From assembly GCF_003790525.1 (NCBI RefSeq), contig NZ_CP033635.1: a DNA stretch of 64,000 nt, one strand, 5' to 3'. The position numbers and the translations under genes are program-made. Source of the stretch: Escherichia coli. Its GTDB lineage: Bacteria; Pseudomonadota; Gammaproteobacteria; Enterobacterales; Enterobacteriaceae. Under the pieces are notes generated by a model. That model searched no databases and had not been told where the DNA came from. It saw only the letters and a list, made by a program, of their open reading frames with translations. Below are positions 1-19,763 of this stretch, in pieces. Within the stretch, counting starts at the first letter, position 1, and every line of letters begins with the position of its first letter.

Positions 1-1
1 C

Positions 2-174
2 GCACTGGATATTCTGATTGCGTGGCTACAGGACAATATCGACTGCGAATCGGGAATTATCTTTGACAACGATGAGGATAGAACGGATTCGGCAGCACTG
101 TTGCCCTGTATCGAACAGGCCAGGGAGGATATCCGTATCCTGCGCCAGTTGCAGCTTCTGCAACAGAACCGGTG
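2..174 (+). CDS. 3' end of an island gene (start lies outside the window); acidic C-terminal tail, function unknown
   Basis: Frame 2 is open from the window edge to TGA at 172..174 (…ALDILIAWLQDNIDCESGIIFDNDEDRTDSAALLPCIEQAREDIRILRQLQLLQQNR*); a hairpin terminator follows. Confidence 0.45.
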
Positions 175-203
175 AGTCTTACTCACCAGACTTCATTCCA
201 CTG

Positions 204-236
204 ACGCCAGCCTGAACAGGGCTGGCGTTTTCATTT
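204..236 (+). terminator. Rho-independent terminator-like hairpin after the upstream island gene
   Basis: 9-bp perfect stem acgccagcc / ggctggcgt with 7-nt loop, followed by a T-rich tail (ttttcattt). Confidence 0.55.
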
Positions 237-259
237 ATCTGCAAAAAGGAATATCGATT

Positions 260-1126
260 ATGTCTGAAATCACAGCCCCCCGTCCGGAAGTGGTCAACGG
301 GCATACGGACGTTATCGGCTCAACCAGCATCCGCCACATTCTGGCTGTACGAAAGAGTGCGCTGCTGCAAATCGACACACTTATCCGGCAACTGGCAGAA
401 ATCTCGGTGCTGACGGAAAGCATCGGAGGTAAAACTGCACTGGACTGGGCCATGAAACAGGATTTTCGCTGCGGTTGCTGGCTGATGGAAAAACCGGAAA
501 CCGCAATGAAAGCCATCACCCGCAACCTTGACCGCGAAATCTGGCGTGATCTGATGCAACGTTCAGGGATGCTGTCATTAATGGATGCACAAGCCCGTGA
601 TACATGGTACCGGTCACTGGAGTACGATAATTTTCCGGAAATCAGCGAAGCAAATATCCTGAGCACGTTTGAACAACTGCACCAGAACAAAGATGAAGTG
701 TTTGAGCGAGGGGTGCTCAACGTTTTCAGAGGACTGAGCTGGAATTACAAAACCAATTCACCCTGCAAATTTGGCAGTAAAATTATCGTCAACAATCTGG
801 TGAGGTGGGACCGGTGGGGGTTTCATCTTATCACCGGACAACAGGCCGATCGACTTGCCGATCTGGAAAGAATGCTGCACCTGTTCAGCGGCAAACCGAT
901 CCCCGACAACCGGGAAAACATCACCATTCATCTGGATGATCACATCCAGTCTGTTCAGGGTAAAGAGGACTATGAAGATGAGATGTTCAGCATCAGATAC
1001 TTTAAGAAGGGCTCCGCGCACATCACGTTCAGGAAACCAGAGCTGGTTGACAGGCTTAATGATATTATTGCCAGACACTACCCGGAAGCCCTGGCAAGCA
1101 CAGTGAACAAAAGCCGCAAGGCATAA
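260..1126 (+). CDS. Hypothetical 288-aa island protein, function unknown (possibly DUF4942-like; unverified)
   Basis: Uninterrupted 867-nt ORF with AAGGAA ribosome-binding site 7 nt upstream of ATG; soluble-looking protein with no transmembrane segment or recognisable catalytic motif; sits between the upstream terminator and the ParDE module. Confidence 0.75.
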   Translation: MSEITAPRPEVVNGHTDVIGSTSIRHILAVRKSALLQIDTLIRQLAEISVLTESIGGKTALDWAMKQDFRCGCWLMEKPETAMKAITRNLDREIWRDLMQRSGMLSLMDAQARDTWYRSLEYDNFPEISEANILSTFEQLHQNKDEVFERGVLNVFRGLSWNYKTNSPCKFGSKIIVNNLVRWDRWGFHLITGQQADRLADLERMLHLFSGKPIPDNRENITIHLDDHIQSVQGKEDYEDEMFSIRYFKKGSAHITFRKPELVDRLNDIIARHYPEALASTVNKSRKA

Positions 1127-1165
1127 AAGAGGTATTTTACAATTCGCGAATATTAACTATTATTA

Positions 1166-1181
1166 ATTGATAGTAATCAAT
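1166..1181. promoter_or_regulatory. Palindromic putative operator in the parDE promoter region
   Basis: ATTGAT-agta-ATCAAT inverted repeat about 17 bp upstream of the parD start, next to a TATTAAT -10-like hexamer (1161..1167). Confidence 0.35.
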
Positions 1182-1197
1182 CGGCGAGAAAATAACC

Positions 1198-1461
1198 ATG
1201 CCTACCAGTGTATCCCTCAGTCCTTACTTTGAAACGTTTATCCGCGAACAAATAGAAAGTGGTCGGTACAACAATACAAGTGAAGTCATTCGTGCCGGAC
1301 TTCGTGCTCTGGAAGAACGGGAACAGCAGATAAAGCTTGAATCACTCCAGAGCGCCGTGGCCGCAGGCATCAACAGCGGTGAAAGTAAAAGTGCTGAAGA
1401 GGTATTCGGGCGACTGACGCACAAATACAAAAAGATGGCAGAAGGTGAACAGCCAATATGA
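1198..1461 (+). CDS. parD: Type II antitoxin, ParD family (ribbon-helix-helix)
   Basis: 87-aa protein MPTSVSLSPYFETFIREQIESGRYNNTSEVIRAGLRALEEREQQI… typical of ParD antitoxins; stop overlaps the next start (ATGA). Confidence 0.85.
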   Translation: MPTSVSLSPYFETFIREQIESGRYNNTSEVIRAGLRALEEREQQIKLESLQSAVAAGINSGESKSAEEVFGRLTHKYKKMAEGEQPI

Positions 1462-1784
1462 AACTGACTGTTTCACCATTAGCAGAACACGATCTTGAAG
1501 CTATAGGTGACTGGATCGCTCAGGATAATCCTGTCCGTGCAATCAGTTTTACCGAAGAGCTTTACCAACAATGTCTGTTGATAGCCGAATCGCCAGTACT
1601 CTACAGAGAAAGACCCGAGTTAGGGGCTGGGATCAGAGGTTGTTCGTATGGTCGTTACCTTCTGCTGTTCAGGGTACTGGATACTGAAGTTCGTATCGAA
1701 CGTATCGTTCATGGTTCCCGGGATATCAACAGGGTACTTGCAGAGCCAGACGACAAACCATCAGATCATTTCTGGCAGCCATAA
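1458..1784 (+). CDS. parE: Type II toxin, ParE/RelE superfamily
   Basis: 108-aa protein; 4-bp overlap with parD; size, basic C-terminal half and gene order fit a ParE toxin. Confidence 0.8.
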   Translation: MKLTVSPLAEHDLEAIGDWIAQDNPVRAISFTEELYQQCLLIAESPVLYRERPELGAGIRGCSYGRYLLLFRVLDTEVRIERIVHGSRDINRVLAEPDDKPSDHFWQP

Positions 1785-2031
1785 ACAAAATCTGTGCGTT
1801 AACGCTCCCTAACACAGGTAGCCAGGTATTTTATAAATCTCTGTATTTTGTTGTCACTTCGATTCCGCGATTCAGCATATCGAACCAGACAAAATGATTA
1901 CAACAAACCACAAGAAAGAGGGATTATAGCGTCAAAAGAATTCGAATTGCACATGGGGGCCTCATTGGTGGCCTCAAAAAGAACAAGGATAAAACAGTCG
2001 ATACAAAACAATTGGTTATATAACCAGTTTC

Positions 2032-2050
2032 ATTCCGAGTCCGGGCACCA
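2032..2050 (+). other. tRNA-Phe 3'-terminal 19-nt remnant (att core direct repeat, attR side); not a functional tRNA
   Basis: ATTCCGAGTCCGGGCACCA matches the acceptor/T-arm 3' end of E. coli tRNA-Phe including CCA; the 57 nt upstream (1975..2031) do not resemble the tRNA body. Confidence 0.8.
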
Positions 2051-2062
2051 AATTCATATAAA

Positions 2063-2088
2063 CGGACCTCCACGGAGGTCCGTTTTTC
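2063..2088 (+). terminator. Native pheU rho-independent terminator retained downstream of the tRNA remnant
   Basis: Stem cggacctc / gaggtccg with 4-nt loop followed by TTTTT, 12 nt after the CCA. Confidence 0.65.
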
Positions 2089-2666
2089 GTTTCAGGACGC
2101 CACAATTTAAGCGTTCTCCCTAAAAATCATTTCTACCGAACTCAACCAGATTCTCCCCACAACACCAGCATTTTGCGGGTATATCCCAATTCGGGGAAAT
2201 GTGTTCCTGAGCGATAGCACTGACTGACGTGAAATGTCGTGCGGCCCCGTGATGCTGTTGAACGTCAAATGACGTCATCAGGAGCGTAACGCATCCATAA
2301 AGCACAACATCGGTCTGAACGCCGACTGATAAGATTTTCTGAATGAGAACAAAGAGAAATGTATCGGTCCACTTGCTCATGCAAAGACTAACAATCCATT
2401 AAAATAGTAAGCGCTCCGGACAACTTTCCATGGATTATTTTCTGCACATTTTTCTTTGGCAAAGATGATGAATTTTGATGGTAAGGAAAATTACTTCTGG
2501 TTCTCAGTAAAATCCTTTCGTAATACTATGTAATCAAGAAGTTTATGGCGGGTAAAAATAACGTCTTGCATTCACCAATAATATGTAAATAAACCCATCT
2601 ATAGATGGAAAAAATAGATTATGGCAATTATCATTGCATCATTCCCTTTTCGAATGAGTTTCTATT

Positions 2667-4205
2667 ATGCAACAACCTGTAGTTCGCGTTGGCGAATGGC
2701 TTGTTACTCCGTCCATAAACCAAATTAGCCGCAATGGGCGTCAACTTACCCTTGAGCCGAGATTAATCGATCTTCTGGTTTTCTTTGCTCAACACAGTGG
2801 CGAAGTACTTAGCAGGGATGAACTTATCGATAATGTCTGGAAGAGAAGTATTGTCACCAATCACGTTGTGACGCAGAGTATCTCAGAACTACGTAAGTCA
2901 TTAAAAGATAATGATGAAGATAGTCCTGTCTATATCGCTACTGTACCAAAGCGCGGCTATAAATTAATGGTGCCGGTTATCTGGTACAGCGAAGAAGAGG
3001 GAGAGGAAATAATGCTATCTTCGCCTCCCCCTATACCAGAGGCGGTTCCTGCCACAGATTCTCCCTCCCACAGTCTTAACATTCAAAACACCACAGCGCC
3101 ACCTGAACAATCCCCAGTTAAAAGCAAACGATTCACTACCTTTTGGGTATGGTTTTTTTTCCTGTTGTCGTTAGGTATCTGTGTCGCACTGGTAGCGTTT
3201 TCAAGTCTTGAAACACGTCTTCCTATGAGCAAATCGCGTATTTTGCTCAATCCACGCGATATTGACATTAATATGGTTAATAAGAGTTGTAACAGCTGGA
3301 GTTCCCCGTATCAGCTCTCTTACGCGATAGGCGTGGGTGATTTGGTGGCGACATCACTTAACACCTTCTCCACCTTTATGGTGCATGACAAAATCAACTA
3401 CAACATTGATGAACCGAGCAGTTCCGGTAAAACATTATCTATTGCGTTTGTTAATCAGCGCCAATACCGTGCTCAACAATGCTTTATGTCGGTAAAATTG
3501 GTAGACAATGCAGATGGTTCAACCATGCTGGATAAACGTTATGTCATCACTAACGGTAATCAGCTGGCGATTCAAAATGATTTACTCCAGAGTTTATCAA
3601 AAGCGTTAAACCAACCGTGGCCACAACGAATGCAGGAGACGCTCCAGCAAATTTTGCCGCATCGTGGTGCGTTATTAACTAATTTTTATCAGGCTCATGA
3701 TTATTTACTGCATGGCGATGATAAATCATTGAATCGTGCCAGTGAATTATTAGGTGAGATTGTTCAATCATCCCCAGAATTTACCTACGCGAGAGCAGAA
3801 AAAGCATTAGTTGATATCGTGCGCCATTCTCAACATCCTTTAGATGAAAAACAATTAGCAGCACTGAATACAGAAATAGATAACATTGTTACACTGCCGG
3901 AATTGAATAACCTGTCCATTATATATCAAATAAAAGCGGTCAGTGCTCTGGTAAAAGGTAAAACAGATGAGTCTTACCAGGCGATAAATACTGGCATTGA
4001 TCTTGAAATGTCCTGGCTAAATTATGTGTTGCTTGGCAAGGTTTATGAAATGAAGGGGATGAACCGGGAAGCAGCTGATGCATATCTCACCGCCTTTAAT
4101 TTACGCCCAGGGGCAAACACCCTTTACTGGATTGAAAATGGTATATTCCAGACTTCTGTTCCTTATGTTGTACCTTATCTCGACAAATTTCTCGCTTCAG
4201 AATAA
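2667..4205 (+). CDS. cadC: CadC, membrane-integrated ToxR-like transcriptional activator of cadBA
   Basis: 512-aa ORF with N-terminal winged-helix DNA-binding domain, one transmembrane segment and periplasmic sensor domain; upstream of cadBA. Confidence 0.93.
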   Translation: MQQPVVRVGEWLVTPSINQISRNGRQLTLEPRLIDLLVFFAQHSGEVLSRDELIDNVWKRSIVTNHVVTQSISELRKSLKDNDEDSPVYIATVPKRGYKLMVPVIWYSEEEGEEIMLSSPPPIPEAVPATDSPSHSLNIQNTTAPPEQSPVKSKRFTTFWVWFFFLLSLGICVALVAFSSLETRLPMSKSRILLNPRDIDINMVNKSCNSWSSPYQLSYAIGVGDLVATSLNTFSTFMVHDKINYNIDEPSSSGKTLSIAFVNQRQYRAQQCFMSVKLVDNADGSTMLDKRYVITNGNQLAIQNDLLQSLSKALNQPWPQRMQETLQQILPHRGALLTNFYQAHDYLLHGDDKSLNRASELLGEIVQSSPEFTYARAEKALVDIVRHSQHPLDEKQLAALNTEIDNIVTLPELNNLSIIYQIKAVSALVKGKTDESYQAINTGIDLEMSWLNYVLLGKVYEMKGMNREAADAYLTAFNLRPGANTLYWIENGIFQTSVPYVVPYLDKFLASE

Positions 4206-4570
4206 GTAACTCCCGGGTTGATTTATGCTCGGGAATATTTGTTGTTGAGTTTTTGTATGTTCCTGTTGGTATAATATGTTGCGGCAATTTATTTGCCGCA
4301 TAATTTTTATTACATAAATTTAACCAGAAAATATTCCGTAATCCATTGTAAACATTGAATGTTTATCTTTTCATGATATCAACTTGCGATCCTGATGTGT
4401 TAATAAAAAACCTCAAGTTCTCACTTACAGAAACTTTTGTGTTATTTCACCTAATCTTTAGGATTAATCCTTTTTTCGTGAGTATTCTTAGCGCCAGTTT
4501 GGTCTGGTCAGGAAATAGTTATACATCATGACCCGGACTCCAAATTCAAAAATGAAATTAGGAGAAGAGC
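4206..4570 (+). promoter_or_regulatory. cadBA promoter region (Pcad) with CadC-binding sites expected
   Basis: 365-bp AT-rich spacer between cadC and cadB; individual binding sites not mapped from sequence. Confidence 0.4.
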
Positions 4571-5905
4571 ATGAGTTCTGCCAAGAAGATCGGGCTATTT
4601 GCCTGTACCGGTGTGGTTGCCGGTAATATGATGGGGAGCGGTATTGCATTATTACCTGCGAACCTAGCAAGTATCGGTGGTATTGCTATCTGGGGTTGGA
4701 TTATCTCTATTATTGGTGCAATGTCGCTGGCGTATGTATATGCCCGACTGGCAACAAAAAACCCGCAACAAGGTGGCCCAATTGCTTATGCCGGAGAAAT
4801 TTCCCCTGCATTTGGTTTTCAGACAGGTGTTCTTTATTACCATGCTAACTGGATTGGTAACCTGGCGATTGGTATTACCGCTGTATCTTATCTTTCCACC
4901 TTCTTCCCAGTATTAAATGATCCTGTTCCGGCGGGTATCGCCTGTATTGCTATCGTCTGGGTATTTACCTTTGTAAATATGCTCGGCGGTACCTGGGTAA
5001 GCCGTTTAACCACTATTGGTCTGGTGCTGGTTCTTATTCCTGTGGTAATGACAGCTATTGTTGGCTGGCATTGGTTTGATGCTGCGACTTATGCTGCTAA
5101 CTGGAATACTGCGGATACCACCGATGGTCATGCGATCATTAAAAGTATTCTGCTCTGCCTGTGGGCCTTCGTGGGTGTTGAATCCGCAGCTGTAAGTACT
5201 GGTATGGTTAAAAACCCGAAACGTACCGTTCCGCTGGCAACCATGCTGGGTACTGGTTTAGCAGGTATTGTTTACATCGCTGCGACTCAGGTGCTTTCCG
5301 GTATGTATCCGTCTTCTGTAATGGCAGCTTCCGGTGCTCCGTTTGCAATCAGTGCTTCAACTATCCTCGGTAACTGGGCTGCGCCGCTGGTTTCTGCATT
5401 CACCGCCTTTGCGTGCCTGACTTCTCTGGGCTCCTGGATGATGTTGGTAGGCCAGGCAGGTGTACGTGCCGCTAACGACGGTAACTTCCCGAAAGTTTAT
5501 GGTGAAGTCGACAGCAACGGTATTCCGAAAAAAGGTCTGCTGCTGGCTGCAGTGAAAATGACTGCCCTGATGATCCTCATCACTCTGATGAACTCTGCCG
5601 GTGGTAAAGCATCTGACCTGTTCGGTGAACTGACCGGTATCGCAGTACTGCTGACTATGCTGCCGTACTTCTACTCTTGCGTTGACCTGATTCGTTTTGA
5701 AGGCGTTAACATCCGCAACTTTGTCAGCCTGATCTGTTCTGTACTGGGTTGCGTGTTCTGCTTCATCGCGCTGATGGGCGCAAGCTCCTTCGAGCTGGCA
5801 GGTACCTTCATCGTCAGCCTGATTATCCTGATGTTCTACGCTCGCAAAATGCACGAGCGCCAGAGCCACTCAATGGATAACCACACAGCGTCTAACGCAC
5901 ATTAA
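4571..5905 (+). CDS. cadB: Lysine:cadaverine antiporter
   Basis: 444-aa polytopic APC-family transporter; conserved position between cadC and cadA. Confidence 0.95.
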   Translation: MSSAKKIGLFACTGVVAGNMMGSGIALLPANLASIGGIAIWGWIISIIGAMSLAYVYARLATKNPQQGGPIAYAGEISPAFGFQTGVLYYHANWIGNLAIGITAVSYLSTFFPVLNDPVPAGIACIAIVWVFTFVNMLGGTWVSRLTTIGLVLVLIPVVMTAIVGWHWFDAATYAANWNTADTTDGHAIIKSILLCLWAFVGVESAAVSTGMVKNPKRTVPLATMLGTGLAGIVYIAATQVLSGMYPSSVMAASGAPFAISASTILGNWAAPLVSAFTAFACLTSLGSWMMLVGQAGVRAANDGNFPKVYGEVDSNGIPKKGLLLAAVKMTALMILITLMNSAGGKASDLFGELTGIAVLLTMLPYFYSCVDLIRFEGVNIRNFVSLICSVLGCVFCFIALMGASSFELAGTFIVSLIILMFYARKMHERQSHSMDNHTASNAH

Positions 5906-5984
5906 TTAAAAGTATTTTCCGAGGCTCCTCCTTTCATTTTGTCCCATGTGTTGGGAGGGGCCTTTTTTACCTGGAGATATGACT

Positions 5985-8132
5985 ATGAACGTTATTGCAA
6001 TATTGAATCACATGGGGGTTTATTTTAAAGAAGAACCCATCCGTGAACTTCATCGCGCGCTTGAACGTCTGAACTTCCAGATTGTTTACCCGAACGACCG
6101 TGACGACTTATTAAAACTGATCGAAAACAATGCGCGTCTGTGCGGCGTTATTTTTGACTGGGATAAATATAATCTCGAGCTGTGCGAAGAAATTAGCAAA
6201 ATGAACGAGAACCTGCCGTTGTACGCGTTCGCTAATACGTATTCCACTCTCGATGTAAGCCTGAATGACCTGCGTTTACAGATTAGCTTCTTTGAATATG
6301 CGCTGGGTGCTGCTGAAGATATTGCTAATAAGATCAAGCAGACCACTGACGAATATATCAACACTATTCTGCCTCCGCTGACTAAAGCACTGTTTAAATA
6401 TGTTCGTGAAGGTAAATATACTTTCTGTACTCCTGGTCACATGGGCGGTACTGCATTCCAGAAAAGCCCGGTAGGTAGCCTGTTCTATGATTTCTTTGGT
6501 CCGAATACCATGAAATCTGATATTTCCATTTCAGTATCTGAACTGGGTTCTCTGCTGGATCACAGTGGTCCACACAAAGAAGCAGAACAGTATATCGCTC
6601 GCGTCTTTAACGCAGACCGCAGCTACATGGTGACCAACGGTACTTCCACTGCGAACAAAATTGTTGGCATGTACTCTGCTCCGGCAGGCAGCACCATTCT
6701 GATTGACCGTAACTGCCACAAATCGCTGACCCACCTGATGATGATGAGCGATGTTACGCCAATCTATTTCCGCCCGACCCGTAACGCTTACGGTATTCTT
6801 GGTGGTATCCCACAGAGTGAATTCCAGCACGCTACCATTGCTAAGCGCGTGAAAGAAACACCAAACGCAACCTGGCCGGTACATGCTGTAATTACCAACT
6901 CTACCTATGATGGTCTGCTGTACAACACCGACTTCATCAAGAAAACACTGGATGTGAAATCCATCCACTTTGACTCCGCGTGGGTGCCTTACACCAACTT
7001 CTCACCGATTTACGAAGGTAAATGCGGTATGAGCGGTGGCCGTGTAGAAGGGAAAGTGATTTACGAAACCCAGTCCACTCACAAACTGCTGGCGGCGTTC
7101 TCTCAGGCTTCCATGATCCACGTTAAAGGTGACGTAAACGAAGAAACCTTTAACGAAGCCTACATGATGCACACCACCACTTCTCCGCACTACGGTATCG
7201 TGGCGTCCACTGAAACCGCTGCGGCGATGATGAAAGGCAATGCAGGTAAACGTCTGATCAACGGTTCCATTGAACGTGCGATCAAATTCCGTAAAGAGAT
7301 CAAACGTCTGAGAACGGAATCTGATGGCTGGTTCTTTGATGTATGGCAGCCGGATCATATCGATACGACTGAATGCTGGCCGCTGCGTTCTGACAGCACC
7401 TGGCACGGCTTCAAAAACATCGATAACGAGCACATGTATCTTGACCCGATCAAAGTCACCCTGCTGACTCCGGGGATGGAAAAAGACGGCACCATGAGCG
7501 ACTTTGGTATTCCGGCCAGCATCGTGGCGAAATACCTCGACGAACATGGCATCGTTGTTGAGAAAACCGGTCCGTATAACCTGCTGTTCCTGTTCAGCAT
7601 CGGTATCGATAAGACCAAAGCACTGAGCCTGCTGCGTGCTCTGACTGACTTCAAACGTGCGTTCGACCTGAACCTGCGTGTGAAAAACATGCTGCCGTCT
7701 CTGTATCGTGAAGATCCTGAATTCTATGAAAACATGCGTATTCAGGAACTGGCTCAGAATATCCACAAACTGATTGTTCACCACAATCTGCCGGATCTGA
7801 TGTACCGCGCATTTGAAGTGCTGCCGACGATGGTAATGACTCCGTATGCTGCATTCCAGAAAGAGCTGCACGGTATGACCGAAGAAGTTTACCTCGACGA
7901 AATGGTAGGTCGTATTAACGCCAATATGATCCTTCCGTATCCGCCGGGAGTTCCTCTGGTAATGCCGGGTGAAATGATCACCGAAGAAAGCCGTCCGGTT
8001 CTGGAGTTCCTGCAGATGCTGTGTGAAATCGGCGCTCACTATCCGGGCTTTGAAACCGATATTCACGGTGCATACCGTCAGGCTGATGGCCGCTATACCG
8101 TTAAGGTATTGAAAGAAGAAAGCAAAAAATAA
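5985..8132 (+). CDS. cadA: Inducible lysine decarboxylase
   Basis: 715 aa from MNVIAILNHMGVYF…; PLP-dependent fold-type I decarboxylase with wing, core and C-terminal domains; ORF-track ORF trimmed to the recognised start. Confidence 0.95.
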   Translation: MNVIAILNHMGVYFKEEPIRELHRALERLNFQIVYPNDRDDLLKLIENNARLCGVIFDWDKYNLELCEEISKMNENLPLYAFANTYSTLDVSLNDLRLQISFFEYALGAAEDIANKIKQTTDEYINTILPPLTKALFKYVREGKYTFCTPGHMGGTAFQKSPVGSLFYDFFGPNTMKSDISISVSELGSLLDHSGPHKEAEQYIARVFNADRSYMVTNGTSTANKIVGMYSAPAGSTILIDRNCHKSLTHLMMMSDVTPIYFRPTRNAYGILGGIPQSEFQHATIAKRVKETPNATWPVHAVITNSTYDGLLYNTDFIKKTLDVKSIHFDSAWVPYTNFSPIYEGKCGMSGGRVEGKVIYETQSTHKLLAAFSQASMIHVKGDVNEETFNEAYMMHTTTSPHYGIVASTETAAAMMKGNAGKRLINGSIERAIKFRKEIKRLRTESDGWFFDVWQPDHIDTTECWPLRSDSTWHGFKNIDNEHMYLDPIKVTLLTPGMEKDGTMSDFGIPASIVAKYLDEHGIVVEKTGPYNLLFLFSIGIDKTKALSLLRALTDFKRAFDLNLRVKNMLPSLYREDPEFYENMRIQELAQNIHKLIVHHNLPDLMYRAFEVLPTMVMTPYAAFQKELHGMTEEVYLDEMVGRINANMILPYPPGVPLVMPGEMITEESRPVLEFLQMLCEIGAHYPGFETDIHGAYRQADGRYTVKVLKEESKK

Positions 8133-8145
8133 TTAGCTCGTACAA

Positions 8146-8173
8146 GGGAAGTGGCTTGCCACTTCCCTTTTTT
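8146..8173 (+). terminator. cadBA operon rho-independent terminator
   Basis: Stem gggaagtggc / ccacttccc with loop ttg, followed by TTTTTT. Confidence 0.7.
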
Positions 8174-8190
8174 GCTCATAAGGAGAACAC

Positions 8191-9648
8191 ATGAAAACAC
8201 CCTCACAGCCGCGCGCGATATACTATATCGTGGCGATCCAAATCTGGGAGTACTTCAGTTTTTACGGCATGCGTGCCTTACTCATTCTCTATCTCACCCA
8301 TCAGCTTGGTTTTGATGATAACCATGCCATCAGCCTGTTCAGCGCATATGCTTCTCTGGTTTACGTTACCCCTATTCTCGGCGGCTGGCTTGCCGACCGC
8401 CTGCTCGGCAACCGCACTGCAGTGATTGCCGGCGCGCTGTTAATGACCCTTGGCCATGTGGTGCTGGGCATTGATACAAATTCAACCTTTAGCCTGTATC
8501 TGGCGCTGGCAATCATTATTTGTGGCTACGGTTTATTCAAATCAAACATCAGCTGTTTGCTTGGCGAGCTCTACGACGAGAACGATCATCGACGTGATGG
8601 CGGTTTTTCGCTGCTGTATGCTGCGGGCAATATCGGTTCTATCGCAGCCCCCATCGCCTGCGGCCTGGCTGCTCAGTGGTATGGATGGCATGTTGGCTTT
8701 GCCCTTGCGGGAGGCGGCATGTTTATCGGTTTGTTGATTTTCTTAAGTGGTCATCGTCATTTCCAGTCCACGCGTAGTATGGATAAAAAAGCGCTCACTA
8801 GCGTCAAATTTGCCTTACCAGTATGGACCTGGTTAGTGGTGATGCTCTGTTTAGCCCCAGTATTTTTTACCCTGCTGCTGGAGAACGACTGGTCCGGATA
8901 TTTGCTGGCGATCGTTTGCCTCATTGCCGCACAAATCATTGCCCGCATGATGATCAAATTCCCCGAACACCGCCGTGCTCTTTGGCAAATTGTATTGTTG
9001 ATGTTTGTCGGGACGTTGTTCTGGGTACTGGCACAACAGGGCGGCAGTACCATCAGCTTGTTTATCGATCGCTTTGTGAATCGTCAGGCATTCAATATTG
9101 AAGTACCTACAGCACTATTCCAGTCGGTGAATGCTATTGCGGTGATGCTCGCTGGGGTTGTTCTGGCCTGGCTGGCGTCGCCAGAAAGCCGCGGCAATTC
9201 AGCATTGCGCGTCTGGCTGAAGTTTGCCTTTGGCTTACTGCTGATGGCTTGTGGCTTTATGTTGCTGGCATTTGATGCCCGACATGCAGCGGCTGGCGGT
9301 CAAGCGTCAATGGGCGTGATGATATCCGGGCTGGCGCTAATGGGCTTTGCTGAACTCTTTATTGACCCAGTGGCGATTGCGCAAATCACGCGTCTGAAAA
9401 TGTCTGGCGTATTAACCGGTATTTATATGCTGGCAACAGGCGCGGTCGCCAACTGGCTGGCAGGCGTCGTGGCACAGCAGACGACAGAGTCGCAAATTAG
9501 CGGTATGGCAATTGCCGCTTACCAGCGATTCTTTTCTCAGATGGGAGAGTGGACGTTGGCTTGTGTCGCGATCATCGTGGTATTGGCCTTTGCTACCCGT
9601 TTTCTGTTTAGCACGCCGACGAATATGATACAGGAGAGCAACGATTAA
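8191..9648 (+). CDS. dtpC: Proton-dependent dipeptide/tripeptide permease (POT family)
   Basis: 485-aa MFS/POT transporter; matches E. coli DtpC (YjdL) in sequence and position. Confidence 0.92.
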
Positions 9649-9884
9649 CTGTCGTAAAAACAATTGGTTATGAATAAATTAACTTTCAGTTTATCACACT
9701 AGTAAATCGAGATTAATAAGTCATTTAAACCATTTTTATGGTTATTTATTAGTGATATCAACTTGAGGTAAGCGTTAGTTTCGATAAGATAAACTGAGTT
9801 ATTAATAGTCGAGGCAGATAATACAGTGTACCGATCTGTCTCTTTATCTACGCTAAATTGAAAGCTGGATTTAGAGGAACCAAA

Positions 9885-11402
9885 ATGTCTGAACGAGAAA
9901 CACGGGGAGCCAATGAGGCTATTGATTTTAACGATGAACTGAGAAATCGCCGCGAAAAACTGGCGGCACTACGTCAGCAAGGTGTGGCGTTTCCCAATGA
10001 TTTTCGCCGCGACCATACCTCTGACCAGTTGCACGACGAGTTTGATGCGAAGGATAACCAGGAACTGGAATCCTTAAACATTGAAGTCTCGGTTGCTGGC
10101 CGAATGATGACCCGTCGTATTATGGGGAAAGCCTCCTTTGTAACGTTGCAGGATGTCGGTGGCCGTATTCAACTGTACGTTGCAAGAGATAGCCTGCCAG
10201 AAGGTGTTTATAACGATCAGTTTAAAAAATGGGATCTGGGTGACATTATCGGTGCCCGCGGTACGCTGTTTAAGACGCAAACGGGTGAGCTTTCCATTCA
10301 CTGTACTGAGCTGCGCCTGCTGACTAAAGCACTACGTCCTTTACCAGATAAATTCCATGGTCTGCAGGATCAGGAAGTCCGTTATCGTCAACGTTATCTG
10401 GACCTCATCGCTAACGATAAATCCCGTCAAACGTTTGTTGTCCGTTCAAAAATTCTGGCCGCTATCCGTCAGTTCATGGTCGCGCGCGGCTTTATGGAAG
10501 TAGAAACCCCGATGATGCAGGTAATTCCAGGTGGGGCATCTGCTCGCCCGTTTATTACCCATCATAACGCTCTGGATTTAGATATGTACCTGCGTATCGC
10601 GCCGGAGCTGTATCTGAAACGTCTGGTTGTAGGCGGTTTTGAACGGGTATTCGAAATCAACCGTAACTTCCGTAATGAAGGTATTTCTGTTCGCCATAAT
10701 CCTGAGTTCACAATGATGGAACTCTACATGGCATATGCGGATTACCATGATTTGATTGAACTGACGGAGTCACTGTTCCGCACCCTGGCACAAGAGGTAC
10801 TGGGTACCACTAAAGTCACTTATGGCGAGCATGTGTTTGATTTCGGCAAACCGTTTGAAAAACTCACCATGCGCGAAGCAATCAAAAAATATCGTCCAGA
10901 AACCGATATGGCGGATCTGGATAATTTTGATGCTGCTAAAGCATTAGCTGAATCTATCGGAATTACGGTAGAGAAAAGCTGGGGGCTGGGACGTATTGTC
11001 ACAGAGATCTTTGATGAAGTGGCAGAAGCACATCTGATTCAGCCAACCTTTATTACGGAATATCCGGCAGAAGTGTCCCCGCTGGCGCGCCGTAATGATG
11101 TTAACCCGGAAATCACCGACCGTTTTGAATTCTTCATCGGTGGTCGTGAAATTGGTAATGGTTTTAGCGAATTAAACGACGCAGAAGATCAGGCTGAACG
11201 TTTCCAGGAACAGGTTAACGCTAAAGCTGCAGGTGACGACGAAGCCATGTTCTATGACGAAGATTACGTGACTGCGCTGGAATATGGTCTGCCGCCAACC
11301 GCTGGTCTGGGTATTGGTATCGACCGAATGATTATGCTGTTTACTAACAGCCATACTATTCGCGACGTTATTCTCTTCCCGGCGATGCGCCCACAGAAAT
11401 AA
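9885..11402 (+). CDS. lysU: Lysyl-tRNA synthetase, inducible isoform
   Basis: 505 aa from MSERETRG…; class II aaRS motifs; located next to the cad locus as for lysU. Confidence 0.93.
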
Positions 11403-11415
11403 ATTTCACTTAAAT

Positions 11416-11445
11416 GAACGAAGCAGTCAGGCGACTGCTTCGTTC
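11416..11445. terminator. Hairpin between convergent lysU and ghoT (possible bidirectional terminator)
   Basis: 13-bp stem gaacgaagcagtc / gactgcttcgttc with 4-nt loop; no clear U-tract on the plus strand. Confidence 0.4.
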
Positions 11446-11520
11446 GTCGTTCCGCAAATCCAGTTTTGAGGAGAGACGCTTCGTTTCAAGATAACCAGCG
11501 GGTCCACTCAACTACAACTC

Positions 11521-11694
11521 CTAAAAGAGAGAAAAAAGTAATGCCACAGGTAAACTCATTGGCCAGGTTATTCCGACCAGGAATGCGCTAAGTAAACGAA
11601 TATGTGTTTTCTCATGTGAGATAAACCAGATAATGACAAAGGATATGTTCACACCAATCACATAAAAAATTAATATTTTAGAGAATAGTGCCAT
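11521..11694 (-). CDS. ghoT: Type V toxin GhoT, small membrane-lytic peptide (57 aa)
   Basis: Below the ORF-track size cut-off; the reverse complement reads MALFSKILIFYVIGVNISFVIIWFISHEKTHIRLLSAFLVGITWPMSLPVALLFSLF*, matching GhoT as I recall it. Confidence 0.85.
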   Translation of the reverse strand: MALFSKILIFYVIGVNISFVIIWFISHEKTHIRLLSAFLVGITWPMSLPVALLFSLF

Positions 11695-11721
11695 TTTTTA
11701 TGTTCTTCTTATCCTTCCTGG

Positions 11722-12018
11722 CTACTTGTAAAACTGACGGAAATAGTCATCAACGGTCATAATGTTGAGGTCAAAATCAATATCCGGTAAGTCTAAGCAT
11801 TTAAGCCTGATTAAATCTTCGATTTCACTTGCGGCTAACGATGTCGTTATTGCGAAGGAATTTTCATTCAATTGTCGTGGTATCCCATATTCATCAGCCA
11901 CGATAGAGGAGAAATTCATATCATACATCAATGATCTTAACCTTAAGAACACTGAGGAATAAGATGATGGATAATCAAAAGAAACAACATAAGTATTGAA
12001 CTTGTTTTTACCTTCCAT
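11722..12018 (-). CDS. ghoS: Type V antitoxin GhoS (sequence-specific endoribonuclease)
   Basis: 98 aa from MEGKNKFNTYVVSFDYPSSY…; immediately upstream of ghoT on the same strand. Confidence 0.85.
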   Translation of the reverse strand: MEGKNKFNTYVVSFDYPSSYSSVFLRLRSLMYDMNFSSIVADEYGIPRQLNENSFAITTSLAASEIEDLIRLKCLDLPDIDFDLNIMTVDDYFRQFYK

Positions 12019-12245
12019 AATATGACTCCTATCAATATTGAACACTCTGGGGACGCAAAACTTATTAACCCCGATCGATGATTCTCATATAGGAGATATT
12101 CTTTTTTTTTGCTCAGTAAAGGGGATGACTTGGGACAAAAAAACGCTCTCTCTGACCATTCTTTGTGCATCCCCCTACCCTTCAGATACTCTCCTGCATC
12201 CCCCCGCGGAGAGCATGAAAAATATTGTGACTCTGTACTCTCCCA

Positions 12246-12518
12246 TCAACTGCGAATATCATCATACTCCCGCGTTTTATCAAATTCGTGTTTCGCAAAT
12301 GGGCATAGTGGGATAATTTTTCGTTTTTCCCGACGCATTTTTTCCACGACTTTCGCAACCAGCTGTTTACCAATCCCTTGCCCTTTCAGGCTTTCATCGA
12401 CATCGGTATGTTCGATAATCGCTAAATTCTCTCCGGTCGGCACAAAGACAATTTCAGCGATTTGCTTGCCCTGTTCGTCATTAATGTAAAATTTATTGTG
12501 GCCTTCGCGTATTTCCAT
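12246..12518 (-). CDS. yjdJ: Small GNAT-like acetyltransferase-fold protein
   Basis: 90-aa ORF matching E. coli YjdJ by sequence and position. Confidence 0.8.
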
Positions 12519-12529
12519 TTTACCCTCGC

Positions 12530-12760
12530 TTATTTATGACGGTATTTCAGCGCGCCGCTCGGGCACGTATCAATCACTTTAACCACAGTGGCGACGTCGA
12601 CTTCATCCGGCATGATCCACGGCTTTCGTTTGAGATTAAATAACTTGCCGTTGCCACGTACGCAATTGCCAGAATGCTGACATATCGCAGTGTTAAAATA
12701 GACATCGATATTTTCGCCGGTATAACAGCGATAACCCCCGTCCAGTAGCGCCTGATCCAT
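12530..12760 (-). CDS. yjdI: Small cysteine-rich protein (putative Fe-S/zinc cluster binding)
   Basis: 76-aa ORF with CxxC…C…C pattern; matches E. coli YjdI. Confidence 0.8.
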
Positions 12761-12940
12761 GACCTTCCCTCTCTCATCAGTATGGTTTTCACTATAAGCA
12801 TAGCCCCGGAATCTTCATACAGCACTGGCAGTTTCCGTTGCCAGAGTCTCTTCCCCTATATAGCCAATCATTCTTACTCCCTTTGAATTACCCGCCTCAT
12901 CAGAGATAATGCTTAAGAAATTTGTCACACAAGGAAGCTG

Positions 12941-14572
12941 ATGAGACATTCATTGCCCTACCGTATGTTACGCAAACGTCCGATGAAATTGAGTACCACT
13001 GTGATCTTAATGGTCAGCGCGGTACTGTTCTCGGTGCTATTGGTGGTGCATCTGATTTACTTCTCGCAAATCAGTGATATGACGCGAGACGGGCTAGCTA
13101 ACAAGGCACTGGCAGTAGCGCGTACCCTCGCCGACTCGCCGGAAATCCGGCAGGGCTTGCAGAAAAAACCGCAGGAGAGCGGCATCCAGGCCATCGCGGA
13201 AGCCGTGCGCAAACGCAACGATCTGCTATTTATTGTCGTTACCGATATGCAAAGTCTTCGCTACTCGCATCCTGAAGCCCAGCGTATTGGTCAGCCATTT
13301 AAAGGTGATGACATCCTTAAAGCGCTGAATGGCGAAGAAAATGTCGCTATCAATCGCGGTTTTCTGGCGCAGGCTTTACGCGTATTTACCCCCATCTACG
13401 ATGAAAATCATAAACAAATTGGCGTGGTGGCGATCGGCCTTGAGTTAAGTCGCGTGACCCAACAGATCAATGACAGTCGCTGGAGCATCATCTGGTCGGT
13501 ATTATTTGGCATGCTGGTCGGGCTGATTGGCACCTGCATTCTGGTTAAGGTACTGAAAAAAATCCTTTTCGGCCTGGAACCCTACGAAATCTCCACGCTG
13601 TTTGAGCAACGCCAGGCCATGTTGCAGTCTATCAAAGAAGGCGTCGTTGCCGTGGACGATCGCGGCGAAGTCACGCTGATCAACGATGCCGCACAAGAAT
13701 TGCTGAATTACCGTAAGTCGCAGGACGATGAGAAGCTGTCGACGCTAAGCCACGCGTGGTCACAGGTAGTAGATGTCTCGGAAGTGTTACGCGACGGTAC
13801 CCCGCGCCGCGACGAAGAGATTACGATTAAAGACCGGCTATTACTGATCAACACCGTTCCGGTGCGCAGTAATGGCGTTATCATCGGTGCCATTTCAACC
13901 TTCAGGGACAAAACTGAAGTACGTAAACTGATGCAGCGACTCGATGGTCTGGTCAACTATGCTGACGCACTTCGTGAACGATCCCACGAATTTATGAATA
14001 AATTGCACGTGATTCTCGGATTATTGCATCTGAAGAGTTATAAGCAGTTGGAAGATTACATTCTCAAAACAGCCAATAACTATCAGGAAGAGATTGGCTC
14101 TCTGCTGGGTAAGATCAAATCTCCGGTTATCGCTGGTTTTTTAATCAGCAAGATTAACCGCGCGACCGATTTAGGCCATACGCTGATTTTAAACAGTGAA
14201 AGCCAGCTGCCAGACAGCGGTAGTGAGGATCAGGTCGCGACGCTGATTACCACGTTGGGAAATCTGATAGAAAACGCGCTGGAGGCATTAGGGCCGGAAC
14301 CCGGAGGCGAAATTAGCGTAACATTGCACTACCGTCACGGCTGGCTGCACTGTGAAGTTAACGATGATGGACCGGGGATCGCACCCGACAAAATCGATCA
14401 CATTTTTGACAAAGGTGTCTCGACAAAAGGAAGCGAGCGAGGCGTCGGTTTAGCACTTGTCAAACAACAGGTAGAAAATCTCGGCGGCAGCATCGCCGTG
14501 GAATCGGAACCCGGGATTTTCACACAATTTTTTGTCCAGATACCCTGGGACGGGGAGAGGTCGAACAGATGA
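12941..14572 (+). CDS. dcuS: C4-dicarboxylate sensor histidine kinase
   Basis: 543 aa; two transmembrane segments flanking a periplasmic PAS-type sensor domain, cytoplasmic PAS and HisKA/HATPase domains. Confidence 0.95.
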   Translation: MRHSLPYRMLRKRPMKLSTTVILMVSAVLFSVLLVVHLIYFSQISDMTRDGLANKALAVARTLADSPEIRQGLQKKPQESGIQAIAEAVRKRNDLLFIVVTDMQSLRYSHPEAQRIGQPFKGDDILKALNGEENVAINRGFLAQALRVFTPIYDENHKQIGVVAIGLELSRVTQQINDSRWSIIWSVLFGMLVGLIGTCILVKVLKKILFGLEPYEISTLFEQRQAMLQSIKEGVVAVDDRGEVTLINDAAQELLNYRKSQDDEKLSTLSHAWSQVVDVSEVLRDGTPRRDEEITIKDRLLLINTVPVRSNGVIIGAISTFRDKTEVRKLMQRLDGLVNYADALRERSHEFMNKLHVILGLLHLKSYKQLEDYILKTANNYQEEIGSLLGKIKSPVIAGFLISKINRATDLGHTLILNSESQLPDSGSEDQVATLITTLGNLIENALEALGPEPGGEISVTLHYRHGWLHCEVNDDGPGIAPDKIDHIFDKGVSTKGSERGVGLALVKQQVENLGGSIAVESEPGIFTQFFVQIPWDGERSNR

Positions 14573-15288
14573 TCAATGTATTAATTATCGATGACGACGC
14601 AATGGTCGCGGAGCTGAATCGCCGATACGTGGCACAAATCCCGGGCTTTCAATGCTGTGGAACGGCTTCGACGCTGGAGAAAGCCAAAGAGATTATTTTC
14701 AACAGCGACACGCCTATCGACCTGATATTGCTAGATATCTATATGCAAAAAGAGAACGGGCTCGATTTACTGCCTGTCCTGCATAACGCGCGTTGCAAAA
14801 GTGATGTGATTGTCATCTCCTCCGCTGCCGATGCAGCAACCATTAAAGATTCGCTGCATTACGGTGTTGTGGATTACCTGATCAAACCCTTCCAGGCTTC
14901 CCGCTTTGAAGAGGCGCTCACCGGCTGGCGGCAAAAGAAAATGGCGCTGGAAAAACATCAGTATTATGACCAGGCCGAGCTTGATCAGCTAATCCACGGC
15001 AGCAGCTCCAACGAGCAGGATCCTCGTCGCTTGCCAAAAGGCTTAACGCCGCAGACGTTACGCACGCTGTGCCAGTGGATTGACGCGCATCAGGACTATG
15101 AGTTTTCAACCGACGAGCTGGCTAACGAGGTTAACATCTCGCGTGTTTCATGCCGTAAATACCTCATCTGGCTGGTCAACTGCCACATCTTGTTCACCAG
15201 TATCCATTATGGCGTCACGGGGCGTCCGGTTTACCGTTACCGTATTCAGGCAGAACACTACTCACTGCTGAAACAATATTGCCAATAA
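14569..15288 (+). CDS. dcuR: Response regulator of DcuS (CitB family)
   Basis: 239 aa; receiver domain plus C-terminal HTH domain; 4-bp overlap with dcuS. Confidence 0.95.
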   Translation: MINVLIIDDDAMVAELNRRYVAQIPGFQCCGTASTLEKAKEIIFNSDTPIDLILLDIYMQKENGLDLLPVLHNARCKSDVIVISSAADAATIKDSLHYGVVDYLIKPFQASRFEEALTGWRQKKMALEKHQYYDQAELDQLIHGSSSNEQDPRRLPKGLTPQTLRTLCQWIDAHQDYEFSTDELANEVNISRVSCRKYLIWLVNCHILFTSIHYGVTGRPVYRYRIQAEHYSLLKQYCQ

Positions 15289-15858
15289 CGGATCGCTGGT
15301 TATCTGTAAGTAATAATTATTACCGTAATGCAAAATATCCCTGGCACAAGTTACATCGTTCATCAGTAAAACTTGTGCCAGATCAAATATAATTATCCCT
15401 CCATCATCGTTAAAAATTAATATCTCTTCAGATGAACGGTGTTTTTAATTTCAAAACGCTAACAAAAGTTAATTAACTATTATGTCACCCACATTATGTG
15501 TATTTTTACCCACAAATGGGTAGATCAGATTAATCTATAAACCTAATGATATCTGCCCTGAGAACAAAAAACAGACCGATAAATATCAATAAGATAACAG
15601 CAAACAAAACATTAACATCTGCGCTGTACAAACTATAAACCCATCGCCAGAGAGTCTTTCTCTCTGAAAAAGCCGCTTATCACAGTGCATAAATTTGCCG
15701 CTGCTTTAATCAGCCAATATTCACTGTGAGGTATTTGCTCAAGCCGGTAACGACCAAACGGATATTTAGTCAGGCTCTGAAAACAGTTCATACAAAACAG
15801 AACGTGACTGTGATCTATTCAGCAAAAATTTAAATAGGATTATCGCGAGGGTTCACAC

Positions 15859-17199
15859 ATGTTATTTACTATCCAACTTATCATAATACTGATATGTCTG
15901 TTTTATGGTGCCAGAAAGGGGGGTATCGCGCTGGGTTTATTAGGCGGTATCGGTCTGGTCATTCTGGTCTTCGTCTTCCACCTTCAGCCAGGTAAACCAC
16001 CGGTTGATGTCATGCTGGTTATCATTGCGGTGGTGGCAGCATCGGCGACCTTGCAAGCTTCGGGCGGTCTTGATGTCATGCTGCAAATTGCCGAGAAGCT
16101 GCTGCGCCGCAACCCGAAATATGTCTCAATTGTCGCGCCGTTTGTGACCTGTACGCTGACCATTCTTTGCGGTACGGGTCATGTGGTTTACACCATTCTG
16201 CCGATCATCTACGACGTTGCTATTAAGAACAACATCCGTCCGGAACGTCCGATGGCGGCAAGTTCTATCGGTGCACAGATGGGGATTATCGCCAGTCCGG
16301 TGTCGGTTGCGGTCGTATCTTTGGTTGCGATGCTGGGTAATGTCACCTTTGATGGTCGCCATCTTGAGTTCCTCGACCTGCTGGCAATCACCATTCCATC
16401 GACGTTAATCGGTATCCTGGCGATCGGTATCTTCAGTTGGTTCCGCGGTAAAGATCTGGATAAAGACGAAGAGTTCCAGAAATTCATCTCCGTACCGGAA
16501 AACCGTGAGTATGTTTACGGTGATACCGCGACGCTGCTCGATAAAAAACTGCCGAAAAGCAACTGGCTGGCAATGTGGATCTTCCTCGGGGCAATCGCTG
16601 TAGTCGCCCTTCTTGGTGCTGATTCGGACCTGCGTCCATCCTTCGGCGGCAAACCGCTGTCGATGGTACTGGTTATTCAGATGTTTATGCTGCTGACCGG
16701 GGCGCTGATTATTATCCTGACCAAAACCAATCCCGCGTCTATCTCAAAAAACGAAGTCTTCCGTTCCGGTATGATCGCCATCGTGGCGGTGTACGGTATC
16801 GCATGGATGGCTGAAACCATGTTCGGTGCGCATATGTCTGAAATTCAGGGCGTACTGGGTGAAATGGTGAAAGAGTATCCGTGGGCCTATGCCATTGTTC
16901 TGCTGCTGGTTTCCAAGTTTGTAAACTCTCAGGCTGCGGCGCTGGCGGCGATTGTTCCGGTCGCGCTGGCGATCGGCGTTGATCCGGCATACATCGTGGC
17001 TTCAGCACCGGCTTGCTACGGTTATTACATCCTGCCGACTTATCCGAGCGATCTGGCAGCGATTCAGTTTGACCGTTCCGGCACCACCCACATCGGTCGC
17101 TTCGTCATCAACCACAGCTTTATTCTGCCGGGGTTGATTGGTGTGAGCGTATCGTGCGTCTTCGGCTGGATCTTCGCCGCGATGTACGGGTTCTTATAA
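15859..17199 (+). CDS. dcuB: Anaerobic C4-dicarboxylate antiporter
   Basis: 446-aa polytopic Dcu-family transporter. Confidence 0.95.
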
Positions 17200-17276
17200 A
17201 TGCACTTTGCGTGCCGCCCGTGACTACGCGGCACGCCATTTTCGAATAACAAATACAGAGTTACAGGCTGGAAGCT

Positions 17277-18923: not shown

Positions 18924-18939
18924 CCTCTTCGGCCCAGCG

Positions 18940-18959
18940 CCTGGCAGCATGCTGCCAGG
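18940..18959. terminator. Perfect 20-bp palindrome downstream of fumB (putative terminator hairpin)
   Basis: cctggcagcatgctgccagg is its own reverse complement; a weak T-run follows further downstream. Confidence 0.35.
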
Positions 18960-19045
18960 TGATCCCCCTGGGCCACCTCTTTTGCGATTGTAATTTCACG
19001 CTTACTGGTCAATAGTCAGTATTTTCCCTGACTTGCGAACTCACC

Positions 19046-19675: not shown

Positions 19676-19691
19676 CAACGTGCGCTTTGTT

Positions 19692-19729
19692 GATGCCGGA
19701 TGCGGCGTGAATTCCTTATCCGGTCTACA
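19692..19729. repeat. REP (repetitive extragenic palindromic) element
   Basis: gatgccggatgcggcgtgaattccttatccggtctaca shows the canonical REP palindrome. Confidence 0.75.
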
Positions 19730-19763
19730 AAATTTGCAAATCCAAAGCATTGTATTAAGAAGT

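Follow-up and report, generated by a model that had tools for sequence, protein, structure and literature searches.

The window, meaning the whole 64,000-nt stretch of Escherichia coli DNA that was analyzed, opens with a few small genes, a noncoding block and a fragment of tRNA-Phe, which are followed by a terminator-like hairpin, an integrase remnant and cadC:

1..175, plus strand: 3′ end (C-terminal 57 codons) of a DUF957 gene; a complete 198-bp CDS (WP_000839265.1) spans this position in the genome of XDL.
260..1126, plus strand: DUF4942 protein, 288 aa (Pfam PF13708, E = 2.6e-69).
1198..1461, plus strand: ParD antitoxin, 87 aa (TIGR02606, 96.8 bits versus a cutoff of 46.2).
1458..1784, plus strand: ParE toxin, 108 aa, the last gene of the putative island (Pfam PF05016, E = 9.1e-18).
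1858..2031, plus strand: noncoding right-end block, 174 bp, 87–100% identical in 1113 of 5426 genomes.
2032..2050, plus strand: putative attR core, a 19-bp direct repeat corresponding to tRNA-Phe nt 58–76 (T-loop to CCA).
2060..2085, plus strand: intrinsic-terminator hairpin and T-run (11 pairs, −18.4 kcal/mol, z = −5.8).
2214..2407, plus strand: integrase remnant (K-12 yjdQ, b4654), identified by tblastn against the 421-aa integrase of TUM13754 and by alignment with intact loci.
2667..4205, plus strand: cadC, the first intact chromosomal gene right of the junction.

Positions 2032..2050 read ATTCCGAGTCCGGGCACCA, the final 19 nt of the 76-nt tRNA-Phe gene that is intact in K-12 and XDL. The original prediction had described an exact copy of the tRNA 3′ end preceded by 57 nt unrelated to the tRNA body, and both points hold: the suffix identity is exact over 19 nt, while upstream agreement with the tRNA body (12 of 57 positions) is at chance level. 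ARAGORN called no tRNA gene in the entire window, and Rfam at E<=1 returned no tRNA-like or partial tRNA match within 1..6000. That the 19-mer resembles the tRNA-Phe 3′ end by chance is close to inconceivable: it occurs once in 64 kb even when three mismatches are allowed, against a chance mean of 0.04, and it is located exactly at the K-12 breakpoint. We regard this reading as ruled out by the 19-mer statistics.

Alignment with K-12 MG1655 begins at window position 2029 (98.6% identity), and K-12 is collinear with the window to 63998 at 95.5–98.3% identity with three small gaps only. The breakpoint thus falls at 2031/2032, give or take 3 nt, where it had been predicted, and K-12 has no counterpart of window 1..2028 at this locus. 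The GC content of the island (47.1–47.4%) is lower than that of the rest of the window (51.2%), but no sharp step marks the junction because the adjoining cadC region is itself only 38–44% GC.

The genes left of the breakpoint are typical of genomic islands, in agreement with the earlier view that everything left of 2032 is accessory cargo. What had appeared to be a gene fragment is the DUF957 gene, incomplete through the window edge and neither a pseudogene nor truncated in the genome (it had no match in NCBIfam), and the 288-aa protein previously left unassigned is the DUF4942 protein, a name given by PGAP in every matching genome. A CP4-44-like "yee" module has been described at the right end of tRNA-Phe islands (PMC11537424), and the DUF4942 gene is a conserved member of that module. 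In the last gene pair, parD lies upstream of parE with a 4-bp overlap (1458..1461), the gene order of ParDE type II toxin–antitoxin systems, and the pair could serve to stabilize the island; the TIGR02385 score of ParE was under its cutoff.

The 174-bp block between ParE and the repeat is presumably the P arm of attP. It is common to pheU and pheV islands whose last cargo genes differ, and homology with islands ending in AbiE-type genes begins at about 1858. The block opens with TTCGATTCCG, a 10-nt copy of tRNA-Phe positions 54–63, a match that was equalled or bettered in 5 of 2000 shuffles. As a candidate for an old attR this 10-mer was rejected, since no genomes have ParDE directly before the chromosomal flank; ParDE is linked to the 174-bp block in 471 of 472 genomes. 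No convincing arm-type motifs were common to the P arm (1785..2031) and the P′ arm (the pheU-to-integrase spacer of XDL); the only repeats were GAACTC-type ones on the P′ side and, on the P side, a TGGGGGCCTCA/TGGTGGCCTCA pair.

Since the window covers only the last 2 kb of the island, its far end is known from other genomes. Two complete public genomes, XDL and CM2, match the first 25 kb of the window apart from one indel; in XDL the first difference in 22.7 kb is one T in a homopolymer run. Intact pheU lies 69,258 bp (XDL) and 82,408 bp (CM2) left of the junction, giving an island size of 69–82 kb. In both genomes the order at this end is dsbD-dicD-pheU(intact)-integrase (WP_001218742.1), with pheU directly preceding a complete P4-type tyrosine integrase and holding the only other copy of the 19-mer. 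That second copy also sits within intact pheU in CE20 and GTEN_23, and the direct repeat is exactly 19 bp. A search for degenerate copies (up to 4 mismatches) through the window and the XDL and CM2 islands found none besides attL and attR. The expectation that pheU and an integrase lie at the far left end is therefore borne out 69 and 82 kb away, and the intact pheU, integrase and second 19-mer support the attR interpretation. They also contradict the view that pheU was truncated by deletion or rearrangement, with the 19 nt left as the remnant of a destroyed tRNA gene and no site-specific integration. Taken alone the window shows just a tRNA 3′ fragment, as such a truncation would leave; however, the matching genomes hold intact pheU in its dsbD-dicD context with an integrase beside it and a repeat ending exactly at CCA, and the junction string recurs at pheV, which makes truncation extremely unlikely.

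The integrase beside pheU matches arm-binding, central and catalytic domain models (PF13356, PF22022 and PF00589), and the motifs LRTIELR, HGFRH and RGTY are legible in its translation; against NCBIfam NF007246 it scored 309 bits, under the cutoff of 434. An AlpA-family protein encoded in the island is a candidate excision factor. The XDL and CM2 islands differ in internal cargo (69 kb versus 82 kb), which comprises metabolic genes (raffinose/sucrose), restriction-modification, toxin–antitoxin pairs and resistance genes (floR, tet(A), strAB and sul2 in XDL; blaCTX-M-14 in CM2), together with CP4-like leftovers (YfjI, an inovirus Gp2 family protein and the yee module). No relevant paper on a raffinose island at pheU turned up in a literature search.

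To the right of the repeat, the original prediction placed the K-12 core from 2051 onward, beginning with the tRNA's own terminator at 2063..2088. Collinearity with K-12 stands, but 2051..2407 (hairpin, spacer and yjdQ) is not ancestral core: it is what remains, in decayed form, of the left end of an older island that had a second integrase type. The hairpin, placed here at 2060..2085 and essentially the feature predicted, acts as the pheU terminator in K-12; it is the word "own" that probably does not hold. The same hairpin follows intact pheV, ahead of the 421-aa integrase, in ATCC 25922. Because this hairpin follows pheV wherever the 421-aa integrase type has inserted, and the native pheV flank has a different one, it was probably brought in by an older island of that type as its leftmost part. 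The yjdQ remnant, annotated by PGAP as a pseudogene at 2248..2407, retains the first ~11 codons of the integrase (the start codon is now ATA) and, after an internal deletion, its last ~60 codons. In 96% of the complete E. coli genomes covered by the search this relic adjoins cadC, and between yjdQ and cadC (2405..2670) a search for a tRNA-like or end-block-like relic of the old island's right end found nothing above shuffles. The K-12 pheU-cadC interval, including its terminator hairpin, thus appears to derive from the left end of an old island, now decayed and near-universal in E. coli, and provides an incidental example of tRNA loci accumulating and fossilizing islands.

The position of the 10-mer suggests a further, speculative role for the end block. 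Since TTCGATTCCG sits exactly where ParDE- and AbiE-ended islands start sharing sequence, the island integrases could use it as a secondary recombination site for exchanging the cargo cassettes at the island ends. Taken with the replacement of the tRNA's terminator by an island-borne hairpin, this would make these islands elements with a portable "tRNA 3′ flank kit" and a cassette-exchange site, a proposal that we consider improbable.

The junction recurs widely. In a survey set of 5,426 complete E. coli genomes, the junction string (TTTC plus the 19-mer) together with the 174-bp block is present in about 1,100, at pheU and pheV; 365 genomes have the junction exactly as here, beside cadC, and 3740 of the 5426 carry an uninterrupted, K-12-like dicD-pheU-hairpin-yjdQ segment. 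The end block and 19-mer are also found at pheV in ATCC 25922, and in tandem arrays before an intact 421-aa integrase at pheV of GTEN_23 and also in W2-5 and TUM13754. In ATCC 25922, an end block at about 90% identity pairs with a different integrase (~41% amino-acid identity). Furthermore, the XDL island contains genes that elsewhere directly follow the 421-aa integrase, as well as two internal integrase fragments. The island is a mosaic and its end block pairs with another integrase elsewhere, so the integrase now beside pheU may not be the one that made the junction.

One version of this idea is that the junction was made by the 421-aa integrase (int-B) instead of the 394-aa integrase beside pheU (int-A), the present island being two fused tandem islands from which the internal junction and int-B were deleted, possibly via IS1. 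Consistent with such a fusion, the stretch 1858..2050 shares 90.6% identity with the right end of the pheV island in ATCC 25922, an island whose left end is pheV and then int-B. TPR and phosphoethanolamine-transferase genes lie inside the XDL and CE20 islands just past IS1 remnants, and directly after int-B in ATCC 25922 and TUM13754, with a same-size gene in GTEN_23; the two fragments within the XDL island are int-B-like, and the published 19-bp attR class is tied to a single integrase allele, intP4.1 (PMC11537424). However, the int-A island of GTEN_23, which has no internal TPR/transferase module, ends in a ParDE end block with 97.6% identity, followed by a perfect 19-bp repeat, showing that int-A islands also own this type of end. 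Intact int-B comes only after that island's repeat in GTEN_23, and the near-constant linkage of ParDE to the end block argues in the same direction. We therefore find a role for int-B in making this junction rather doubtful.

Alternatively, this lineage may have gained the island by homologous recombination of a large segment with flanking core genes and not by a new integrase event, in which case the att structure would go back to an earlier integration in a different strain. Immediately right of the repeat, 710 bp agree completely with SMS-3-5 but only at ~96% with most genomes, island ends are near-identical in distant backgrounds, and the yee and flu modules have been reported as recombination hot regions (PMC11537424), all of which fit this route; the repeat structure, however, is equal under both routes. 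Acquisition by homologous recombination is a possibility that we rate as unlikely, and it would alter the history of the locus and not the identity of the feature.

The repeat, the breakpoint, the far-end pheU and integrase and the conserved end block together favor the reading originally proposed, site-specific integration with attR at the distal junction, and we put at about 90% the probability that 2032..2050 forms the attR core of an island that entered pheU through site-specific recombination. Under this model, a P4-family tyrosine integrase, the putative catalyst of the event, would have exchanged strands inside the 19 bp common to attP and tRNA-Phe nt 58–76. The near end (attL) would then consist of intact pheU followed by the integrase gene, and the far end (attR) of the second 19-bp copy, lying after the last cargo (DUF957 and DUF4942, both of the yee module, and ParDE) and the 174-bp end block. 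In the target chromosome, pheU would already have been trailed by the decayed left end of the earlier island (hairpin, spacer and yjdQ). Because insertion would postdate the relic beside pheU, the locus can be read as elements accreted in tandem, in the order pheU, island, 19-bp repeat, old island relic and cadC.

The junction marks the end of accessory DNA in the window and matters little beyond annotation: whatever genes lie to the left of 2032 are best regarded as cargo of the island. The island may still be able to excise, and continued mobility appears plausible from its sequence, given that the 19-bp repeats are perfect, the integrase is complete and an AlpA-family gene is present. With the resistance cargo of XDL and CM2, such mobility is of some epidemiological interest.

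As a feature, the junction is already known, an ordinary and well-described attR of a large mobile pheU island beside a decayed older one. The closest counterpart to its right flank is K-12 yjdQ, an integrase pseudogene between pheU and cadC; the same remnant lies in the same position here (2248..2407). In K-12 it follows intact pheU, whereas here it follows only the 19-bp repeat, because the newer island separates it from pheU.

Satellite phage P4, which integrates at leuX, and the CP4-type cryptic prophages of K-12 use a core that reaches from the T-loop of a tRNA gene to its 3′ terminus, and place the integrase gene directly downstream of the restored tRNA. The island shares this T-loop-to-end core and integrase placement, along with a tyrosine integrase bearing an Arm-DNA-bind_3 N-terminal domain and an AlpA-family regulator. 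Unlike P4, the XDL and CM2 islands have no annotated phage structural, P4 replication or capsid-size control genes (judged by annotation only), and their cargo is of the metabolic, restriction-modification, resistance and toxin–antitoxin kinds. ICEEc2, an integrative conjugative element using pheV/pheU (mentioned in PMC11537424), resembles the island in its tRNA-Phe target and flanking-repeat logic but differs in that relaxase and type IV secretion genes are absent from the annotation of the XDL and CM2 islands, the only basis for this comparison.

The nearest relatives are the GI-pheV islands with a "19-bp direct repeat" attR class, which carry the intP4.1 integrase in the uropathogenic E. 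coli CFT073, EC958 and Nissle 1917 (PMC11537424). As in those islands, the target tRNA sequence is identical (pheV and pheU are identical genes), the attR string is TTTC and then the 19-mer, the right-end block is shared at 90% identity, and a CP4-44-like yee module lies ahead of the end. The site here is instead pheU, the repeat is perfect and lacks the G-to-T mismatch of CFT073-type islands, the final cargo genes are ParDE instead of AbiE, and the tRNA-side integrase in the matching genomes is 394 aa long and ~41% identical to the 421-aa type of ATCC 25922. Several hallmarks of a tRNA-Phe genomic island of the P4-like integrase type are present: a distal repeat, an intact tRNA with an adjoining integrase (observed in XDL and CM2), the integrase domains and an empty site in other strains.

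Positions 2032..2050 (ATTCCGAGTCCGGGCACCA) are identical to the final 19 nt of the 76-nt tRNA-Phe gene, which is intact in K-12 and in XDL (with CM2, one of two complete genomes that match the left part of the window), and in the standard tRNA layout they span T-loop position 58 to the CCA end. The match ends at 19 nt, with upstream agreement at chance level (12/57 positions), and a scan of the 64 kb that tolerates up to three mismatches gives this single occurrence of the 19-mer (chance expectation 0.04). Against the K-12 MG1655 region (cadA-cadB-cadC-yjdQ-pheU-dicD-dsbD, minus strand), alignment begins at 2029 with 98.6% identity, and 1..2028 has no counterpart at that locus. These results bear out the exact tRNA-Phe 3' end, the unrelated 57 nt before it and the 2031/2032 breakpoint described in the original prediction. 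Neither observation named there as contradicting it, an intact tRNA-Phe gene immediately upstream or a K-12 copy of 1..2031, was encountered, since ARAGORN found no tRNA gene in the whole window (nor did Rfam find a tRNA-like match in 1..6000 at E ≤ 1) and the left segment is absent from K-12. Collinearity with K-12 runs from 2029 to 63998 at 95.5–98.3% identity (70 kb of K-12 sequence used), broken only by three small gaps: near 38.2–38.3 kb (38230..38312), where the window lacks ~420 bp that K-12 has between yjdM and yjdN; near 40.8 kb (40783..40837), a short stretch at the phnD/phnE border without K-12 alignment; and near 49.7 kb (49728), where it lacks ~110 bp that K-12 has near phnP/yjdP.

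The predicted far end of the island, with intact pheU, an adjacent tyrosine integrase and a second 19-mer, was found leftward in the genomes of XDL (human blood, China) and CM2 (chicken, China), both of which match 1..25000 at 100.0% identity with one indel. The first difference from XDL in the 22.7 kb compared is a T-run at 12111, where the window has one T fewer, possibly because of sequencing or assembly. In XDL, an intact tRNA-Phe gene follows dsbD-dicD; next come a 394-aa tyrosine integrase (WP_001218742.1) with arm-binding, central and catalytic domains and then island DNA up to the 19-mer, so that 69,258 bp lie between the end of pheU and the end of the repeat. XDL carries only two copies of the 19-mer, one inside pheU and one at the window position, and the direct repeat is exactly 19 bp, with not one further base shared on either side. 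The CM2 island (82,408 bp) has the same pheU, integrase protein and first genes, and differs in internal cargo. The repeat, the breakpoint and, in these matching genomes, the intact tRNA with its integrase are all directly shown.

A raffinose/sucrose gene cluster comes straight after the integrase in both islands, and a CP4-44-like yee module (CbeA/CbtA and neighbours) lies directly left of the window position in XDL. One island frame holds different resistance cargo in the two strains: floR, tet(A), aph(6)-Id, aph(3'')-Ib and sul2 in XDL, and ISEcp1-blaCTX-M-14 in CM2. The islands have no annotated conjugation or phage genes and so, by annotation, are neither ICE nor prophage. The 3' 56% of the 394-aa integrase gene (2188..2947 of L002, the XDL island locus) recurs with 98% identity at 174 E. 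coli plasmid locations, indicating that a truncated integrase also travels on plasmids, possibly with the raffinose genes beside it.

Among 5426 complete E. coli genomes, 3740 have an uninterrupted K-12-like dicD-pheU-hairpin-yjdQ stretch, 365 have the window's junction beside cadC, and 1113 contain the island's last 266 bp including the repeat. In alignment, a conserved block at ~1858..2031, just before the 19-mer, is common to islands with different last genes (ParDE in the window, AbiE in ATCC 25922 and TUM13754). Islands with this end block occur at both pheU and pheV (in ATCC 25922, the pheV flank and then the kps capsule genes lie beyond the repeat), so the same end recurs at two identical tRNA genes. 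The left edge of the block, which is the exact start of the sequence shared by ParDE-type and AbiE-type islands, is marked at 1858..1867 by TTCGATTCCG, an exact 10-nt copy of tRNA-Phe positions 54–63 (equalled or beaten in 5 of 2000 shuffles). This motif could mark a former junction or a site of secondary recombination; neither reading was backed by a variant genome.

Rightward of the repeat, the K-12 collinearity in the original prediction holds, but this flank is not ancestral core. The relevant annotated feature is:

2248..2407: integrase pseudogene (yjdQ in K-12), PGAP annotation

Strains W2-5, TUM13754 and GTEN_23 have an intact 421-aa integrase directly after this 19-mer, hairpin and spacer. 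Relative to this protein, the window keeps ~11 N-terminal codons at 2214..2246 (a weak match, with ATG changed to ATA) and the final ~60 codons at 2248..2404 (55–62% identity), the portion between being deleted. The hairpin and T-run, predicted within two or three bases of their position at 2060..2085 (11 pairs, -18.4 kcal/mol, z = -5.8), had been taken for the tRNA's own terminator. In ATCC 25922, however, intact pheV is followed by the window-type hairpin and then the 421-aa integrase, whereas pheV in its native K-12 setting carries another hairpin, and it is this native one that lies past the far repeat in ATCC 25922. The window-type hairpin thus travels with 421-aa-integrase islands, and the pheU terminator hairpin is most likely of island origin. 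Judged by sequence comparison, 2051..2407 (hairpin, spacer and yjdQ) appears to be the degraded left terminus of an earlier 421-aa-integrase island, and since 2051..2760 is contiguous in 5206/5426 genomes, this fossil would lie beside cadC in almost every complete E. coli genome. No right-end relic was recognisable before cadC. A 49-bp segment of the yjdQ-cadC gap (2489..2537) is 79.6% identical to L002 13129..13177, the 3' end of a phosphoethanolamine transferase gene that other strains have a short way downstream of the 421-aa integrase, and may be a further scrap of the old island.

The two integrases are ~41% identical, and it is possible, if unlikely, that the 394-aa enzyme beside pheU is not cognate to the junction of this lineage. 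The window-type end block is paired with the 421-aa type in ATCC 25922, and genes linked to that type occur inside the XDL island: TPR and phosphoethanolamine-transferase genes, which directly follow the 421-aa integrase in ATCC 25922 and TUM13754 (a same-size gene does so in GTEN_23), come after the raffinose/sucrose genes and IS1 remnants in XDL. Two 421-aa-type integrase fragments (L002 20480..20664 and 30826..30891; 80% and 73% amino acid identity) also lie within the island, which indicates assembly by accretion of several elements, and together these features suggest fusion of tandem islands. However, the array in GTEN_23 is clean: pheV, a 394-aa-type integrase (97% identical), Dr adhesin cargo, the yee module and ParDE come first, then an end block with 97.6% identity and a perfect 19-mer, and the intact 421-aa integrase appears only after that repeat. 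Ends of this kind are therefore associated with both integrase types, and either enzyme could have made the junction in the window's lineage, the 394-aa integrase being the likelier.

Tyrosine-recombinase integration of the kind used by phage P4 and CP4 elements is classical, and is the most likely mechanism here: strand exchange inside the 19 bp common to attP and the tRNA gene would restore the tRNA at attL and leave the repeat at attR. Present-day mobility is plausible given the perfect repeats, the complete integrase and a candidate excision factor encoded in the island, an AlpA-family helix-turn-helix protein. The ParDE pair, whose assignment to that family is well supported, may stabilize the island. 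At attL in XDL, the stretch from pheU to the integrase start codon (L002 1587..1762) has no terminator-like hairpin, so pheU transcription may read through into the integrase gene after integration. Three direct repeats of the GAACTC type also occur in this spacer, with a TGGGGGC/GCCCCCA inverted pair directly ahead of the integrase ATG.

Our analysis confirms the observation and supports its attR interpretation, refined by a fossil-island right flank and a probably island-borne terminator. The feature belongs to a known, well-described class and occurs in hundreds of annotated public genomes; two papers describe features of this kind. In STEC, insertions at pheU and pheV are reported to have the tRNA 3' end as a direct repeat (PMC6174562). 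A 2024 study calls pheU an integration hotspot, describes the CP4-44-like yee module, and reports GI-pheV attR as a 23-bp or 19-bp direct repeat (PMC11537424). The attR given there for CFT073, Nissle 1917, UMN026 and others, TTTCATTCCGATTCCGGGCACCA, matches the window string with one mismatch (PMC11537424).
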